DNA of 64,000 nucleotides from a virus (lineage: Duplodnaviria > Heunggongvirae > Uroviricota > Caudoviricetes), in IMG/VR virus record IMGVR_UViG_2541047680_000004; one strand, given 5' to 3'. Below the pieces are notes generated by a model that ran no database searches, was not told where the DNA came from, and saw nothing but the letters and a program-made list of their open reading frames with translations. Made by a program: the position numbers and the translations under genes. Shown here one piece after another: positions 1 to 53,377 of this stretch. Positions within the stretch are counted from its first letter, which is position 1. The number at the start of each line of letters is the position of its first letter.

Positions 1-263
1 ATGAACCTATTAATGTCACTTACTTTTACATCGGCAATGTGCGGCAAAACATGTATCAAAATACAATGAACAGCGATCTCTGGCCGACGTCTGGTTATCA
101 GCAGAGATAAGCGAGTGAATAACAGGAATGCGTCCGAGAATCTCATGTCATTGCTGACCTGGGAGATCATAACGGCCTGCATTTGAGATGCTCTTTCGAG
201 ATACTCTATCGCCTCTTTTGAGGTGTTCTCCGCAGCGCGTGCTCTGTCAAAGCTATTTTTCAT
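1..263 (-). CDS. hypothetical protein (N-terminal part only; gene runs off the left edge)
   Basis: Minus-strand ATG at 263 followed by open frame to window edge (MKNSFDRARAAENTSKEAIEYLERAS...). Confidence 0.25.
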   Translation of the reverse strand, partial: MKNSFDRARAAENTSKEAIEYLERASQMQAVMISQVSNDMRFSDAFLLFTRLSLLITRRRPEIAVHCILIHVLPHIADVKVSDINRF

Positions 264-473
264 ATGACAATCACCGAGTTACGCCGATGCACTGTATAAG
301 TAAACAGTATATTAGGCATAGATTCTTATAGGATCAAGAGTAAAAGTAACTCATTTTCAGCAATGATTCCATACATAGTAGGTATGGAATCATTTTGACG
401 TTGTTTTTTGAATTTTAAGGGAAATGGGAGTGAGTTTGGTGGGAATAAAAACGGCTCCTGTGAGCCGTTAAAA

Positions 474-719
474 TCAGAGGGTGCTGACGTATGCAGCCAG
501 TTCTGTGTATCCGCCAATCGGCTGGCCTTCGATCAGCACCTGGGGGATAGTCTCTACCGGTTTACCAACAATTTCACTTAGTTTTTCCTTGTCGATACCG
601 GCAGTGGTGATGTCGATGTACTCATAATCACCGTAGCCATGTCCCTTTAGTTGCTTCGCTAGCTCGACCGCACGTTTGCAGTATGAGCAGTTATCTCGTC
701 CGTAGATAGTGATCGTCAT
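474..719 (-). CDS. glutaredoxin-like protein
   Basis: MTITIYGRDNCSYCKRA... with CxxC redox motif and glutaredoxin-like length; track ORF 474..797 trimmed to the internal Met at 719. Confidence 0.65.
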   Translation of the reverse strand: MTITIYGRDNCSYCKRAVELAKQLKGHGYGDYEYIDITTAGIDKEKLSEIVGKPVETIPQVLIEGQPIGGYTELAAYVSTL

Positions 720-893
720 TGTTACCTCATAGAATTGATATGCAACTTTACTCACAAAGAAGATAGGTATGTGCATACTTATCTTTGCAGTCTGCATTAT
801 AAAGCTATTAAAGCCTCGATCAATCTATTAATTAAGGCATTGTTTGGTTAACATTACCCTAATATTTTATAGTTAGTAGAGTGAAATACATAC

Positions 894-2156
894 ATGCCTT
901 TTTTAATTTTCATTATTATACTACTGCTCACCGTGATTTTTTGGGATTGGGTTGTTTTAAATGGTCAAATTGTTGGAACATTGGCTACAGCATTTGCTTT
1001 TATAGCAACAGCATGGAATGCCTACGAAGCGAGAAAAAGTGCAAAAGCAGCTTTTTCAGCCCTTCAATTAACAACAGAATCATTGTTCGAAATGCGAAAG
1101 AGTGCATTTAAACAATGGTTTGATTCCTTATTAAATCAACATGATGAGCTATGTCTTCTTGCAAAACAAATTATCGATAAACGCAAAATTAATTTAAACA
1201 GCGATGAGTTACATAGACTATATTACCCATTGGTAAAACAGCATGAGGTAATACAGTATGTGAAGCATATTATTAATATTTTTGAGTATGTGGATAGTTC
1301 ATTTTATATTGATGGGGAATGTCTAAAGGAAAAAAGAGCGTATGTGTCACAATTAATTTTCAAAATCCCACCTCAGATGAAGTTGATCATTGCTATCTTT
1401 GGATTAAAGATCGATTATTGTGAACATATTAATTCGGGAAAACTGTGTTGTTTATTAAATAAATATGATTTTTTCAATGATGAAATATTTTTTGATGATG
1501 CTTATTCAGATATGCCTTATCTGGATGCATTCATAAACCTTAGATTCAACAAAATATTCAAATCTCGAATGATAAATTATTTTGATAATATCATTAAAAG
1601 TTATTATGTTCCATCGGACGTTAAAAGGGACTGGATGTTTCGAGACCCAAAGCTCGTACCGTCGGTTCTTATGAATTATAAAACTCCTTGTTCTCCTATA
1701 ATTAATGATTACTTTGAGAAGTTGCCTTTACATGTAAGAAACTACTTTGAGGAACTACTTAAAACCGCGAATGATAGAGTTACTCATTTTGACGTTTACA
1801 TCCCACGCCTTATTGGTTGTTCAATCGTGCAACATTACGAAGATGTGCCTTCCGAAAAAAACAGGTTAAATGACAGGAATGATGTAATAGCTATGGCTGA
1901 AGATTACATCGAGAAAAGAAAATCTAATCAACTAGATTACATACTTGAAGATATATACTTCAAGAGTGACGAAGATATAATCCCAGGCCACCATTTGATT
2001 GTGGCATTTGATGACTATGAATTTAAATTATCACTCATTAAGATAAATGAGAATAAAGATAGCGATAATCTTTTAAATCGAATTTATACTGAATCCAGTA
2101 GCATGGTTAAAGAATATAAGCGCGAAATATTAAAACTGGGCGACTATGTAAAGTAA
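894..2156 (+). CDS. hypothetical membrane protein (two N-terminal TM helices plus about 360-aa soluble domain), low-GC orphan
   Basis: 420-aa ORF, strongly AT-rich relative to surroundings, opposite strand to neighbours, own terminator downstream; N-terminus FLIFIIILLLTVIFWDWVV / IVGTLATAFAFIATAW hydrophobic. Confidence 0.6.
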   Translation: MPFLIFIIILLLTVIFWDWVVLNGQIVGTLATAFAFIATAWNAYEARKSAKAAFSALQLTTESLFEMRKSAFKQWFDSLLNQHDELCLLAKQIIDKRKINLNSDELHRLYYPLVKQHEVIQYVKHIINIFEYVDSSFYIDGECLKEKRAYVSQLIFKIPPQMKLIIAIFGLKIDYCEHINSGKLCCLLNKYDFFNDEIFFDDAYSDMPYLDAFINLRFNKIFKSRMINYFDNIIKSYYVPSDVKRDWMFRDPKLVPSVLMNYKTPCSPIINDYFEKLPLHVRNYFEELLKTANDRVTHFDVYIPRLIGCSIVQHYEDVPSEKNRLNDRNDVIAMAEDYIEKRKSNQLDYILEDIYFKSDEDIIPGHHLIVAFDDYEFKLSLIKINENKDSDNLLNRIYTESSSMVKEYKREILKLGDYVK

Positions 2157-2176
2157 ATTGCACTGTTCAACAAAAA

Positions 2177-2201
2177 AGGGGCCGAAGCCCCTTTGAATTT
2201 T
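2177..2201 (+). terminator. rho-independent terminator
   Basis: aggggccgaagcccct hairpin followed by T-rich tract immediately after the 894..2156 stop. Confidence 0.55.
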
Positions 2202-2348
2202 GCGCTGAAAAAAGTGTTGCTAGGATGTTAGCAAGCTATGGTTAAGAACGTCTGCCGTAATTATCTATCACAGCGTTGAGCGGTCTGGTTTATGTTAGCG
2301 GAGTCTTAATCGAGTTGATTAAAAGGCCAAACCGCTCAACGCTGTGTC

Positions 2349-2435
2349 TGGCGGAGAGTAATGGAATCGAACCATCATCGTTTGCACAATGGGACGGTTT
2401 TCAAGACCGCTTGAGCACCATGCTCCCTACTCTCC
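2349..2435 (-). tRNA. tRNA-Ser (anticodon UGA), class II
   Basis: Hand-folded: acceptor GGAGAGT/ACTCTCC, anticodon loop CTTGAAA, long variable arm, T-loop GGTTCGATTCC, discriminator G + encoded CCA; 87 nt. Confidence 0.75.
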
Positions 2436-2755
2436 AGCTATTGTGATGGTCGGTGCTGAACTCCGACACAGGGTTGTAGCAAGCCCCGCAAAGCGCGCAC
2501 TACTGTAGTTGCGGCACATCAGCCTGTGCATTCATCACAATGGTAAGATCACTACCTTTCGACCAGTCATTGTGCACATGAACGACGATTAACCGTAATG
2601 ATATTATCGTTGTGTTGTGAAGCCAGATGCTTATCTTCTGGTTGCTTCAAAGAGCTGCACTTCCTCACAACGGTAAGAGCACTGGTCTGACTCTATCGAT
2701 TTACGGCCTTGTGGGTCAGTATCGCCGATTCGCCCAATGCTCTTACCTGTTGTGT

Positions 2756-2831
2756 TGGTGCCGGTTAACGGACTTGAACCGCTGGCCATTCGCTTACAAA
2801 ACGACTGCTCTACCAACTGAGCTAAACCGGC
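2756..2831 (-). tRNA. tRNA-Thr (anticodon UGU)
   Basis: Acceptor GCCGGTT/AACCGGC, D-arm GCTCAGTTGGTAGAGC, anticodon loop TTTGTAA, T-loop GGTTCAAGTCC, encoded CCA; one mismatch at base of anticodon stem. Confidence 0.75.
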
Positions 2832-2835
2832 AATT

Positions 2836-2922
2836 TGGTGGGGAGTGATGGAGTCGAACCACCCGAGTCGCCATGACAGTAGATTTACAGTCTACACCGC
2901 TACCTCTACGGACTAACTCCCC
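2836..2922 (-). tRNA. tRNA-Tyr (anticodon GUA), class II
   Basis: Acceptor GGGGAGT/ACTCCCC, anticodon stem GTAGA/TCTAC with loop CTGTAAA, long variable arm, T-loop GGTTCGACTCC, encoded CCA; sequence differs from the E. coli host tRNA-Tyr. Confidence 0.8.
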
Positions 2923-2927
2923 TAAAT

Positions 2928-3002
2928 TGGCGATGGTGGGTGGATTCGAACCACCGACCAGTTGGTTAACAGCCAACTGCTCTACCGCTGAGCTACACCA
3001 TC
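2928..3002 (-). tRNA. tRNA-Asn (anticodon GUU)
   Basis: Perfect cloverleaf: acceptor GATGGTG/CACCATC, D-arm GCTCAGCGGTAGAGC, anticodon stem GTTGG/CCAAC with loop CTGTTAA, T-arm GGTGGTTCGAATCCACC, encoded CCA; differs from host tRNA-Asn. Confidence 0.85.
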
Positions 3003-3780
3003 AATTCAGCACTGCCAGTATTTATTACTCAACAGTGCCAATCGCGACGGTTTAGTTTCTGCCAGGAAACGCACCGCTACTTGCACTTTTCGTTAGTGCC
3101 AGACGCTTTCGACTTCGCTCAATAGTAGAAGGCAAAATCTTTAAGTAGATGATGTTTCTGAGGACAGCACCTACTTTGTAATTTATACAATGTGATGTAT
3201 GGAATCATTTGTTGTGAAAACAGGCACCAATGGCAACAGTGGTTAAACCTACACAACAATCCCGTCTTCACAACGTTGAGGCCACTACTCCGATTGAATG
3301 TTTGCCCAACATGTTACATATCAACGCTCGCCGGTATCTCTGTGAATAGAACCTTAGAATTGATAAAAATGTAATGGCCTCAACGTTGTGTGCTGGCTAA
3401 CCATACCAGCCGGGCTACGTCGCCGCTTTTTAACCCAGTATAAACGACATAATTGAACAAAATGACGTAACAGGATGGGCGGTCAGTGGCTAAGAATCCG
3501 GGAGTCATATGGAGTTGAAAATATACCAACCGCCCATTCTGTTACTTCATCGGAGGGAACATGAATGTTCCCTCCTGCGTTCTGCAATCACACTCGCTCA
3601 GTGTGTCCCATTTCGGTAACGAGGCTGGAAACTGACCTCGCTGGTGTTTGGCTTATTAGGCTACTGCCAGATAGACTTCTTCGTTTGCACTTGTATTTAA
3701 GTTCAAACAGTCGCGTCTCAACGAAAACAAAGTCATCTTATACACAAAAGATAAGTAAGTAAATACTTATCATTGTATTT

Positions 3781-4071
3781 TTATTCGGTTGTGACTTTTT
3801 TGATCAAGGCCACTCTACGACTAGGTGTTCTTGTGATGGTGGCAGTGAATCGTTTCGCCTGGATAGTAATGGTTTCGTTCTCCTTAAGTTGCCCGTAGCG
3901 AGTTTCCACCAGGGTGCCAAGACGCCACAGACCATCATCGATACGTTTATGACTAGCAAATTTAATCAGCAACAGTTTTACGACTAACTGACCTACGTAA
4001 AAGGCGAATGCGACTCCGGCCGCTAAGAAATAGGTGGCCAACCACCAGTCCCAAGAAGTTAAATTGCTCAT
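3781..4071 (-). CDS. hypothetical small membrane protein
   Basis: 96-aa ORF with N-terminal hydrophobic helix (WLATYFLAAGVAFAFYVGQLVV). Confidence 0.4.
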   Translation of the reverse strand: MSNLTSWDWWLATYFLAAGVAFAFYVGQLVVKLLLIKFASHKRIDDGLWRLGTLVETRYGQLKENETITIQAKRFTATITRTPSRRVALIKKVTTE

Positions 4072-7996: not shown

Positions 7997-9142
7997 ATGA
8001 AATACATAAAATCTTCATCGTTGCTGGCATTAACTTTGCTTTTTAACTCTGGATTCGTTAACGCAGACAATAAACAAACGCTGATAGAAGCCGCTACCGC
8101 AGGGGATACCGCAGCACAAAGTGAGTTAGGTACAAATTATTTTGATGGTGTCAATGGTTTTGATAAGGATGTAGTTGAGGCCAAGAAGTGGATTGATCTA
8201 GCTGCAGAAAAGGGAGATAAAGTAGCATATTATGCACTTGGAGTTATGTACACATTTGGCGAGGGTGTAGATAAAGACCTAAATAAAGCTGTTGAGTACT
8301 ACAAACTTGCGGGGGATGCTCGTGAAGGTAGAGCCTACAACAATCTTGGTGCTATTTATCAAAAGGGGATGCTTGGTAAAGTAGATCATGCACTCGCCAT
8401 TAAATACTTCAAACTAGCCTCTGATGCCGGGTATGTTAAAGCAACTTCAGTTCTTGGGGCGTATTACCAATATGGTAAAGGCGTTAAAAAGAATTATAAA
8501 AAGGCTTTTACTTATTACAAAAAGGCGGCAGACCAAGGCAGTTCAGAAGCTATGATAGGATTAGGAATACTATACGATGATGGGTTAGGCGTTAAACGCA
8601 ATGATGCAGAAGCAGTTAAGTGGTATAAAAAGGCAGCGGAACTTGGAAACGCCGACGCCATAACCAATCTTGGCATTATGTATGAGAATGGGGAAGGTGT
8701 AAAAAAGGACTATAAAAAAGCAGCCGACCTTTATCAGACTGCTTGCGATAAAGGAGAAAAAAGAGGCTGCGATTACATTGCAGAACTGAAAGAAAGCGGC
8801 AAATATCGAGCGCCGGCTTCCAAAGCCAAAACAAAATCCGCCACCCAGCGACTTATTGCTAAATCCATTGATAAGGGCGTTAACGCTACATTTACCTGGC
8901 AGGGTGATGATGCTACCTTCACCGCTAATGATGGCAAAGTTGACTGCACCTTCCTGAAGGATTTTTCAGAGAAAGGAGGCAATCTGGCTACCTCGTTTGT
9001 TTGCACCGATAACGTTCAAATCATCCTGAAGCAATTCAGAGATACCAAGAATGCCTACCTCGCGGTAATGACTGACAACTTCAATACAGAAGTTAAATCA
9101 TTTTCGGTCAATGTGTATGTGACTAATACTGGTTCAAACTAG
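7997..9142 (+). CDS. secreted Sel1-repeat (TPR-like) protein
   Basis: Signal peptide MKYIKSSSLLALTLLFNSGFVNA followed by about 7 Sel1-type repeats (A..YxLGxxYxxGxGVxKDxxKAxxWYKKAA pattern); plus strand among minus-strand phage genes. Confidence 0.65.
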   Translation: MKYIKSSSLLALTLLFNSGFVNADNKQTLIEAATAGDTAAQSELGTNYFDGVNGFDKDVVEAKKWIDLAAEKGDKVAYYALGVMYTFGEGVDKDLNKAVEYYKLAGDAREGRAYNNLGAIYQKGMLGKVDHALAIKYFKLASDAGYVKATSVLGAYYQYGKGVKKNYKKAFTYYKKAADQGSSEAMIGLGILYDDGLGVKRNDAEAVKWYKKAAELGNADAITNLGIMYENGEGVKKDYKKAADLYQTACDKGEKRGCDYIAELKESGKYRAPASKAKTKSATQRLIAKSIDKGVNATFTWQGDDATFTANDGKVDCTFLKDFSEKGGNLATSFVCTDNVQIILKQFRDTKNAYLAVMTDNFNTEVKSFSVNVYVTNTGSN

Positions 9143-51180: not shown

Positions 51181-51603
51181 ATGAAATACTCGCTTCTCCC
51201 TCTACTAACGTTACCAGTGTTGATGCTTACCGCGTGCCAATCACGCCCAATATCAATCCATGACGCCAAACCAGCACCGCAGGCCAAAGTGTTCAAGTAT
51301 CAAAGCGCAGCGCCAGCTACGTTGGTGGTAATGAGAGACACAGGTTTTGTAGGAGCTGGATGTGATGCTTCCATTTTCATCAACGGCGAAACTGTCGCAA
51401 AACTGGCTACAGGCGAAAAAGCGACTTTCCATTTAAATGCCGGAGAATTAATTGTGGGTGCATCTCTTGAAGGTGCAGGTTTATGTGCTCTAAACCCCGC
51501 TCGTCAAGAGCGAGAAACGACTCTGAAGAATGGAGACACAAAAGCGTTCAGGGTGTTCACCAGCAATTCTGGTGACATCGACATTCTGCCAACAACTCTG
51601 TGA
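51181..51603 (+). CDS. lipoprotein
   Basis: Signal peptide MKYSLLPLLTLPVLMLTA-C lipobox. Confidence 0.55.
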   Translation: MKYSLLPLLTLPVLMLTACQSRPISIHDAKPAPQAKVFKYQSAAPATLVVMRDTGFVGAGCDASIFINGETVAKLATGEKATFHLNAGELIVGASLEGAGLCALNPARQERETTLKNGDTKAFRVFTSNSGDIDILPTTL

Positions 51604-51607
51604 TGAC

Positions 51608-52132
51608 ATGACAACCAAAGATATTACCTACGGTATCCAAGCTGAACTCTGGCCGCGAGATTACACTAACGTTGAAAAACTACTGATGTTCTGGCGCAGA
51701 GAACAAATTCCTGTAAGGGTCACTCTCGAAGATGGCCAGGCGTTTTGCATGTACGTTTATGGCCTCATGCCATCTCGTAACAAAGTTGACCTTTGCCCAG
51801 CCCCTTTTGACAAAGAAAATCGTATAAGGCTCCCACTTGAACGCATTAGTACAATTGAATCAGGTGTGGTTGACAGTATCGCTCACGATTTCAAAGGTCG
51901 ACTAACAGTTCACCCTGATTATGTCGATAATCGGCCATCACGCCGCGATTTTTTTGCAATTTGCAACCAAGCCTACAAAGCAAACAAATCTATAAGGGTG
52001 TACATGGCGGATGGCCGTGAAATTGAGGGGGTGTCAGCAGGCGCAGATGCTTGTCAGGTTACACTACGTGTCGAGAACGGTAGAAAAATAGTTGTTTTGT
52101 TCGATTGGGTTGAACGAATTTTGCCTTTTTGA
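51608..52132 (+). CDS. hypothetical protein
   Basis: 175-aa ORF (internal Met with reasonable spacing after lipoprotein stop). Confidence 0.45.
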   Translation: MTTKDITYGIQAELWPRDYTNVEKLLMFWRREQIPVRVTLEDGQAFCMYVYGLMPSRNKVDLCPAPFDKENRIRLPLERISTIESGVVDSIAHDFKGRLTVHPDYVDNRPSRRDFFAICNQAYKANKSIRVYMADGREIEGVSAGADACQVTLRVENGRKIVVLFDWVERILPF

Positions 52133-52726: not shown

Positions 52727-53377
52727 ATGGCTAACATTATCATTTCTAAAAAGTCCATCATTGAAGCTGCATCTATTGTATCCGACGAGCTGCGCGAAAA
52801 AGCAGATCTGGCAACTCAAACATATAACGAACATTATAAAAATGGTACGCACACTAAAGCAGACAAAGCAAATATGCAAGCTGCGACCACTAAACTTGCT
52901 TACTTCATCAACAACGTCGTAAACGCAGTAGAAGACGAAAAATTATGCTCTGTTTTCTACTATGCGATTAAAGCAAGCAAACAAGCGCCAGAAGTATTTT
53001 TCCGTGATGCAATGACTAATAGTTATTCTCTGGAAAAACTGGTTTATCTGGTTAAATCAATTAAATCTGGTAAATGCGTTTATTCCGTCGCTGATATGTC
53101 TGGATCTCGTGTATTCGCTTTAATCGATATGATTAACGACGAGATCGACACGTTCACTAATGGCGCTGTTTTCGATTTAATGAATGAAGCTAAAAAAGCG
53201 TGTGAAATTAAATTGGACGCTGGCTATACTCAAGCCAACCAGTTGATCAATCTTTGCGAACGTCTTGGACTTGTTGAAAAAGTCAAAGGAGCTGGGAGTG
53301 CGAAAGCTGGTACTCAGCAATATCGCTTTATTAAAAATGATTTCTACAATTATTTAGCTGATGCTTTCAAAGCGTAA
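52727..53377 (+). CDS. hypothetical protein (AT-rich cassette gene 1)
   Basis: 216-aa ORF with AT-rich codon usage, strong RBS-like aaggaaaaa upstream. Confidence 0.5.
   Translation: MANIIISKKSIIEAASIVSDELREKADLATQTYNEHYKNGTHTKADKANMQAATTKLAYFINNVVNAVEDEKLCSVFYYAIKASKQAPEVFFRDAMTNSYSLEKLVYLVKSIKSGKCVYSVADMSGSRVFALIDMINDEIDTFTNGAVFDLMNEAKKACEIKLDAGYTQANQLINLCERLGLVEKVKGAGSAKAGTQQYRFIKNDFYNYLADAFKA

Follow-up and report, generated by a model that had tools for sequence, protein, structure and literature searches.

The 64,000-nucleotide stretch of IMG/VR virus record IMGVR_UViG_2541047680_000004 analysed here (the window) carries an open reading frame (ORF) for a 420-amino-acid (aa) protein at 894..2156 on the plus strand (stop codon included). 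The first 6 kb of the window match E. coli SSU5-like phage-plasmids. Plasmid p108_MLI108-3 (NZ_CP117002, 108 kb, non-mobilizable) gives a 99.9% match to this region, and Escherichia phages Cyrano and CMS-2020a match it piecewise at 97-99%; judged by sequence, the element that carries the gene is an E. coli SSU5-like phage-plasmid. The gene product is annotated as a 'hypothetical protein' in the plasmid and genome records examined. It is described here as a divergent, AbiC/P-like membrane protein of the putAbiC superfamily, and the evidence leans slightly towards horizontally acquired phage-plasmid cargo for anti-phage defence by a single protein of the AbiC/AbiP type. The best reading of the protein is membrane-anchored lysogenic-conversion cargo with a predicted function. 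An initial annotation of the same DNA had guessed at superinfection exclusion or abortive infection. That guess is strengthened by homology to proteins that pass the threshold of Pfam family PF16872, by an AbiGi-containing gene pair in the identical slot of two other E. coli phage-plasmids, and by relatives on integrative elements, whose neighbours there include Septu-like, DndB and methyltransferase genes. Between the two functions, abortive infection is favoured by homology alone.

A replaceable cassette between grx and tRNA-Ser

Genes around the ORF are ordered integrase, grx, the 420-aa ORF, four tRNA genes, small genes, DNA ligase and primase. The grx gene (474..719, minus strand) encodes a grxA-family glutaredoxin and forms the left backbone flank. 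The right flank is tRNA-Ser(UGA) (2349..2435, minus strand), the first gene of the adjoining tRNA cluster (Ser, Thr, Tyr and Asn; 2349..3002, minus strand), which had been recognised from the start. Between these flanks lies a cargo cassette of 1.44 kb (732..2170). Backbone similarity to Cyrano and to three related elements (L003, L005 and L008) ends at 730/731 and resumes at 2169-2173. The left breakpoint is directly upstream of the grx ribosome-binding site and the right breakpoint is right before a hairpin. The interval 732..2170 is absent or replaced in phage-plasmids with flanks that are 94-99% identical, and the breakpoints are the same each time.

The slot has a variety of occupants. 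In Cyrano it is filled by a minus-strand gene of the Gp49 family (116 aa). In L003, with flanks 94-99% identical, the slot holds a 438-aa allele which is 31% identical to the 420-aa protein and encoded on the same strand; L005-7 have a 431-aa allele (53% identical) with the same position and orientation. L008 and L009 (108 kb) have a backbone with only ~74% DNA identity and an allele that is 33% identical. In NZ_CP062814 and NZ_CP061757, the slot carries AbiGi (PADLOC E 6e-47; Pfam 88 bits) followed by a gene for a 403-aa partner on the same strand. These two genes are found at L033:3939-5998 and L035:3939-5998; AbiGi is 273 aa long, and the partner, for which neither PADLOC nor Pfam gave a match, may be another kind of effector or a divergent AbiGii. 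In three E. coli plasmids the slot is taken by an unrelated 302-aa protein: WP_001755525 in pHXH-2 (L030:720-1628) and pEcoFMU073332c, and a similar form, WP_219805973, in pSJC33-2. Its gene is on the same strand as the 420-aa ORF, has a GC content of 29% and gives no Pfam or PADLOC match; it is a candidate for a further defence gene. All plus-strand occupants have a GC content of 0.29-0.35, compared with ~0.46 for the backbone.

The gene is thus a swappable AT-rich cassette in a fixed backbone slot. The initial annotation had called it a moron, from its composition, orientation and hairpin; replacement of the cassette at fixed breakpoints provides stronger ground for that term. Presence and absence in collinear relatives, deviant composition and independent orientation are all found. 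The low GC content can be quantified: the ORF has a GC of 0.320 against 0.462 for the window (z = -3.9 relative to all 1263-bp windows), and only 0.2% of 1263-bp windows are as low, every one of them overlapping 894..2156. GC at third codon positions (GC3) is 0.29, the lowest among the 38 window ORFs of at least 200 aa. The opposite orientation also holds, as the minus strand encodes grx, the four tRNA genes and every downstream gene.

Of 5426 complete E. coli genomes, 40 contain the whole cassette, in each case on a plasmid of ~110 kb and never on the chromosome. The family is found by tblastn in 138 PLSDB plasmids, which are mostly 105-115 kb, non-mobilizable, and carried by Escherichia, Klebsiella, Enterobacter, Salmonella, Citrobacter and Pantoea. 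The same search against the INPHARED phage collection gave no match. With the alignment of the seven closest sequences, only SSU5-like contigs were found in IMG/VR, and no locus was found in species-representative genomes. This distribution bears on whether the gene could be a lytic-cycle component of the phage-plasmid, for example a holin-like or lysis-timing membrane protein. Two N-terminal transmembrane (TM) helices would suit such a role. However, the gene is missing from about four fifths of related plasmids (it is present in 138 of the ~636 that have the right flank) and from the sequenced phages Cyrano, CMS-2020a and SSU5, and it is remote from the genes for structure and lysis, lies on the other strand and has a foreign composition; a lytic role is therefore very improbable.

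The ORF begins at the first in-frame start codon, and an MP(F/I/V)L start is common to all homologues. Among alleles that are 95-99% identical, the ratio of non-synonymous to synonymous substitution (dN/dS) is 0.24-0.44; the gene is therefore maintained by selection. AT-rich DNA and the lack of a detected promoter could in principle indicate a chance ORF or a decaying pseudogene. Against this, close alleles are intact ORFs of 416-438 aa down to 31% identity, dN/dS is low, and the AlphaFold model is confident (pLDDT 88.8). The conservation data thus effectively refute a chance ORF, and hardly any weight is left for it.

The ORF list, allele comparison and Rfam show neither a partner or antitoxin gene nor a conserved RNA in the cassette; an Rfam scan of positions 1-4000 of the window found tRNAs only and no RNA partner within the cassette. 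The best plus-strand promoter candidate upstream of the ORF, judged by eye, scores 8/12 (~784-812). On the minus strand, a promoter-like site within the cassette (796..823; TTGATC-16-TATAAT, 10/12, a consensus match only) points towards grx. The cassette may supply the grx promoter through this site. In Cyrano the arrangement is different: there, grx sits behind the Gp49 gene on the same strand.

The putAbiC family and the organisation of the protein

The 420-aa protein matches PHROG 18168 (E 4.5e-215), a group of unknown function. A word-indexed homology search returned only seven close relatives; an exhaustive profile search returned 67 clusters, nearly all of 416-495 aa. Three alignments are referred to below: the close subfamily of seven sequences (A1), the family profile (A2) and the lactococcal AbiC clade (A3). 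Pfam family PF16872 (putAbiC, 'putative phage abortive infection protein') has a gathering cut-off of 22 bits. It is matched at E <= 0.01 by 37 of 50 full-length family members, and six members (P0020, P0024 and P0028-31) are above the cut-off, at 25-45 bits. The alleles closest to the 420-aa protein score 18.0 bits (P0007) and 22.0 bits (P0009). By BLASTP, the protein itself aligns with P0020 (25.4 bits to PF16872) at 30% identity over 422 aa (E 5e-38) and with P0030 (45.1 bits to PF16872) at 24% identity over 331 aa (E 9e-23). In the profile search, P0020-P0031 had E-values between 1e-62 and 1e-22. This one-step homology gives good support for placing the protein in the putAbiC superfamily. 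The earlier remark that the soluble domain has no recognisable motif holds for a direct Pfam search, but it does not hold once relatives are considered, since these match PF16872.

Links to named defence proteins are found within the family. The PADLOC AbiC model matches seven members and the AbiP model matches four. The AbiC-like protein of Lactococcus plasmid p275A, which seeded A3, scores 32.2 bits to PF16872, and hhalign of A2 against A3 pairs residues 117-177 of the 420-aa protein with residues 190-250 of the AbiC-like protein (E 1.3e-4). The tie to lactococcal AbiC proper appears remote, and is limited to a core of ~60-80 residues and a common architecture.

Other family names were considered and rejected. 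PADLOC reports PtuB of Septu (E 9e-4) over TM2 and the stalk only (residues 30-128), a match judged spurious; Septu PtuB is rejected, as Pfam finds no HNH domain and the cassette has no PtuA or second gene. The Abi_C/AbiJ HEPN domain is absent both from the scan of the protein (E <= 1) and from the 50 members (E <= 0.01). A paper on SadR that refers to 'AbiC' (PMC13590631) concerns the Abi_C HEPN domain of AbiJ, so the likeness is in name only. A literature search on putAbiC by name found no papers. A distant family member, P0043 (outside the window), matches PADLOC PD-T4-4_B over near full length (E 3.6e-4); the B component of PD-T4-4, a PADLOC-listed system, may be related to the putAbiC core.

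Relatives elsewhere ride on mobile elements, often beside defence genes. P0030 is encoded on an integrase-bearing island with an AAA_15/AAA_21 ATPase and HNH protein (Septu-like), DndB and DUF4145. P0029 lies directly behind an N6-adenine methyltransferase on an integrative mobilizable element, and P0031 is on a small colicin plasmid.

The N-terminus of the protein is a predicted TM helical hairpin (residues 2-44; 897..1025, plus strand) with a 3-residue loop (N23-G24-Q25). The two N-terminal TM helices claimed in the initial annotation are seen both in hydropathy and in the AlphaFold model, with the second being borderline. Hydrophobicity is strong in residues 2-22 (Kyte-Doolittle mean up to 2.8); residues 24-44 (TM2) reach 1.6-1.7 and include many small residues, of which T32, A35, A38, T39 and A43 are conserved in 74-94% of the family. 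Basic residues (R47, K48 and K51) directly follow TM2; under the positive-inside rule, this suggests an in/in hairpin with the bulk of the protein in the cytoplasm. The juxtamembrane motif ATAWNAYEARKSAKAA (residues 38-53; 1005..1052, plus strand) is the most conserved stretch of the close family. It is invariant in all seven A1 sequences, including the 31%-identical allele, and within the cassette, DNA similarity to the L003 allele is confined to 987-1051.

The remainder of the protein has two parts which differ markedly in conservation. The putAbiC core (residues 113-200; 1230..1493, plus strand) corresponds to the region that matches PF16872 at ~120-210 in relatives, and Y122, F193 and F194 are the only residues invariant across 50 family sequences. 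The C-terminal half (residues 201-420; 1494..2153, plus strand) is hypervariable and family-specific, with mixed alpha structure and three short strands. The conservation score is 0.48 for residues 1-200 and 0.23 for residues 201-420. In divergent alleles, the first 60 residues are 50-60% identical, as opposed to 10-24% for the C-terminal half. Forty positions are conserved in at least 70% of members; 37 of these fall within residues 17-199 and three within 201-420. The AlphaFold model based on the 50-sequence alignment (pTM 0.76) superseded one based on seven sequences only, which reached a pLDDT of 60. It has helices at 2-22 and 24-97, the latter continuing as a long stalk to ~97, then a helical bundle (106-235) and a mixed domain (254-414) with the three short strands. 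No relative of the model was found among solved structures, and a profile search against PDB sequences found none below E 0.05.

Two purposes other than abortive infection need to be weighed. In superinfection or entry exclusion, the protein would block DNA entry by phages, SSU5-like rivals or plasmids at the inner membrane without killing the cell, and the allelic diversity would mirror competition between related phage-plasmids. The protein is membrane anchored and prophage-carried, very different alleles occur in near-identical backbones as expected of inter-element determinants, and among the 5426 E. coli genomes it is confined to plasmids. However, the sole detectable relatives are of AbiC/P type, which act after phage DNA entry (PMC13064643); the bulk of the protein is predicted to be cytoplasmic rather than periplasmic, given the basic residues after TM2; and the Pfam and PHROG scans of the protein returned no named exclusion family. 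Exclusion is accordingly a doubtful explanation.

The second is a non-defence accessory function, either as a host-fitness or envelope factor or as a membrane toxin for plasmid maintenance. Such a function would be in keeping with the lack of a direct match to any defence model, a fold without a known relative, the family member on a colicin plasmid and the fact that the function of putAbiC is itself only 'putative'. The cassette has no antitoxin, partner gene or conserved RNA, though, and the slot carries the AbiGi-containing pair in other elements. Relatives are in defence-like neighbourhoods, and a hypervariable half under purifying selection fits recognition of a changing target. An accessory function is considered unlikely, if somewhat less so than exclusion.

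Under the favoured interpretation, anti-phage defence of the AbiC/AbiP type, the TM hairpin would anchor the protein in the inner membrane with its soluble part facing the cytoplasm. Recognition of a component of the infecting phage would fall to the variable C-terminal half, and the trigger could be a late structural protein, by analogy with the major tail protein that triggers AbiP. The conserved membrane, juxtamembrane and putAbiC module would then halt the infection at the expense of the cell. Almost no polar residue is conserved, and several of those few are lost in the 420-aa protein; a conserved catalytic centre is therefore disfavoured, and an effect on the membrane is more probable than catalysis. 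In this way, the resident phage-plasmid would shield its host and itself from competing phages. A wider proposal, offered tentatively, is that the grx/tRNA-Ser slot of enterobacterial SSU5-like phage-plasmids serves as a defence hotspot with fixed breakpoints. A hitherto unrecognised two-module AbiC/P-like family would be its commonest known occupant. This family would combine a conserved membrane effector with a hypervariable C-terminal sensor that sets phage specificity.

Several observations weigh against the defence interpretation. The 420-aa protein has no PF16872 match in Pfam even at E <= 1 and no direct match to the PADLOC AbiC or AbiP models. The hhalign match of A2 to A3 is weak (probability 54%, 61 columns), and A1 aligns with A3 at TM2 only (E 0.008), with no alignment of the core. 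A promoter scan of the plus strand upstream of 894 found none above threshold. At four positions where the family consensus is polar (S120, R155, D161 and E195), this protein has I, I, Q and N. Its soluble part (residues 45-420) has an isoelectric point of 5.99 and a net charge of -6, unlike basic AbiP. As the mechanism of AbiC/P is itself unsolved, the split into sensor and effector and the action on the membrane can only be put forward as suggestions. Finally, one AbiC-like lactococcal protein gave no resistance against the phages assayed (PMC11381338); family membership is therefore no guarantee of activity.

The hairpin and other features of the element

A GC-rich hairpin (2175..2194) lies between the cassette gene and the convergent tRNA operon. 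It has a GGGGCC/GGCCCC stem with a folding energy of -17.6 kcal/mol (z = -2.9). In the initial annotation it was regarded as the gene's own terminator, but this cannot be retained: the hairpin is outside the cassette (732..2170), and the terminator scan scores it on the minus strand only, where a UUCG loop is followed by U6. Read on the plus strand, the U-tract is interrupted (UUUGAAUUUU). The hairpin is also kept in Cyrano, CMS-2020a and Klebsiella phages, which are relatives without the gene, and it therefore belongs to the backbone. It is most likely the minus-strand terminator of the tRNA operon, and may also stop the convergent plus-strand transcript.

A second variable slot is found in the interval between the integrase and grx genes (413-495), and is empty in this window. 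Phage Cyrano has a 184-aa gene there on the plus strand; in L003 and L008 it is occupied by a gene for a YafO-family toxin (Pfam 78.5 bits) together with a 202-aa gene; in NZ_CP062814 it holds a plus-strand gene of 307 aa that matches nothing in Pfam or PADLOC. Within the tRNA cluster, the ~300 bp from tRNA-Ser to tRNA-Thr (2451-2749) and the tRNA-Tyr gene (2836-2922) are missing in Cyrano. No tRNA or Rfam family was detected in the 2451-2749 stretch. Downstream of tRNA-Asn, ~780 bp (3003-3780) have no convincing ORF, yet are 99% conserved in relatives; the sole Rfam match is tmRNA-like and sub-threshold (17 bits, 3605-3707).

Further plus-strand genes are found at a distance from the slot. 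A 381-aa Sel1-repeat protein (Pfam Sel1, 178 bits) is encoded at 7997-9139 on the strand opposite to its neighbours; with a GC3 of 0.37, its gene is a second plus-strand insert with foreign composition. At 51530-52129 there is a gene for a FljA-like repressor of phase-1 flagellin (Pfam Flag1_repress, 281.7 bits). Carriage of this gene on a phage-plasmid may amount to lysogenic conversion of flagellar expression. Some 600 bp past it, at 52727-53374 (plus strand), is a 216-aa ORF with a GC3 of 0.34 and no Pfam match.

Significance and comparison with known abortive infection systems

Clinical E. coli, Shigella, Klebsiella and Salmonella commonly carry SSU5-like phage-plasmids, in which defence-finding tools report few defence genes. 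Defence proteins of the AbiC/P class have been known since 1992, and their mechanism is unsolved. AbiC is not among the systems named in the available part of a DefenseFinder survey of SSU5-group phage-plasmids (bioRxiv 10.1101/2025.09.12.675607). The gene described here seems to represent a branch of the AbiC/P family that has gone undetected, in a slot that elsewhere holds AbiG. By homology it is a divergent member of an already known superfamily, and some relatives with the same architecture already pass the Pfam cut-off; no general principle is altered by the finding. What is new is the fixed-breakpoint cargo slot that also carries AbiG, and the bipartite conservation, which leads to a testable sensor/effector hypothesis. 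If the protein is active, a defence hotspot and a family of specificity alleles would be added to the biology of SSU5-like elements; this would help to explain competition between resident phage-plasmids and lytic phages, with a bearing on phage therapy. If the assignment is true, the gene would also be a tractable E. coli entry point to the AbiC/AbiP mechanism.

AbiC has two TM helices and an extra-membrane domain which superimposes on AbiP, hence the 'AbiC/P' group (PMC13064643). It reduces production of the major capsid protein (PMC13064643, PMC12184496). Like the gene in the window, AbiC (of pTN20, and the AbiC-like gene of p275A) is a single very-low-GC gene on a mobile element, and in its product a soluble domain that is mostly helical comes after two N-terminal TM helices. 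The common core is ~60-80 residues, and both the p275A protein and relatives of the 420-aa protein pass PF16872. AbiC is shorter, at ~340 aa, and its TM loop is ~20 residues long instead of 3. The 420-aa protein has a shorter stalk and a 220-residue hypervariable C-terminal half without a counterpart in AbiC. The carriers also differ: AbiC is lactococcal, whereas the 420-aa protein is encoded by a phage-plasmid of Enterobacteriaceae.

AbiP requires its membrane anchor and prefers RNA over single-stranded DNA for binding (PMC13064643, PMC12184496). Its trigger is the phage major tail protein, and co-expression of the two is toxic (PMC12184496). The 420-aa protein resembles AbiP in being membrane anchored, and the AbiP model matches four members of its family. 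AbiP has one TM helix and a basic nucleic-acid-binding domain; the 420-aa protein has two hydrophobic helices and an acidic soluble part. The general AbiC/P layout of an N-terminal anchor followed by a soluble domain is present, as judged by hydropathy and AlphaFold, with TM2 borderline. PdpSau is a prophage-encoded, membrane-anchored, structurally AbiP-like protein that aborts Kayvirus infection in S. aureus and so protects the lysogen against lytic phages (PMC10127798). It is likened to the 420-aa protein as a prophage-encoded, single-protein, membrane-anchored defence, and the same role is proposed here. PdpSau differs in having a single TM helix, a positively charged OB-like cytoplasmic domain and a Gram-positive host. 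AbiG (AbiGi plus partner), a system of two genes, is unrelated to the 420-aa protein and shares no sequence similarity with it, but it is the positional analogue: it is found in the same slot, on the same strand and with a comparable GC content (0.33-0.34).

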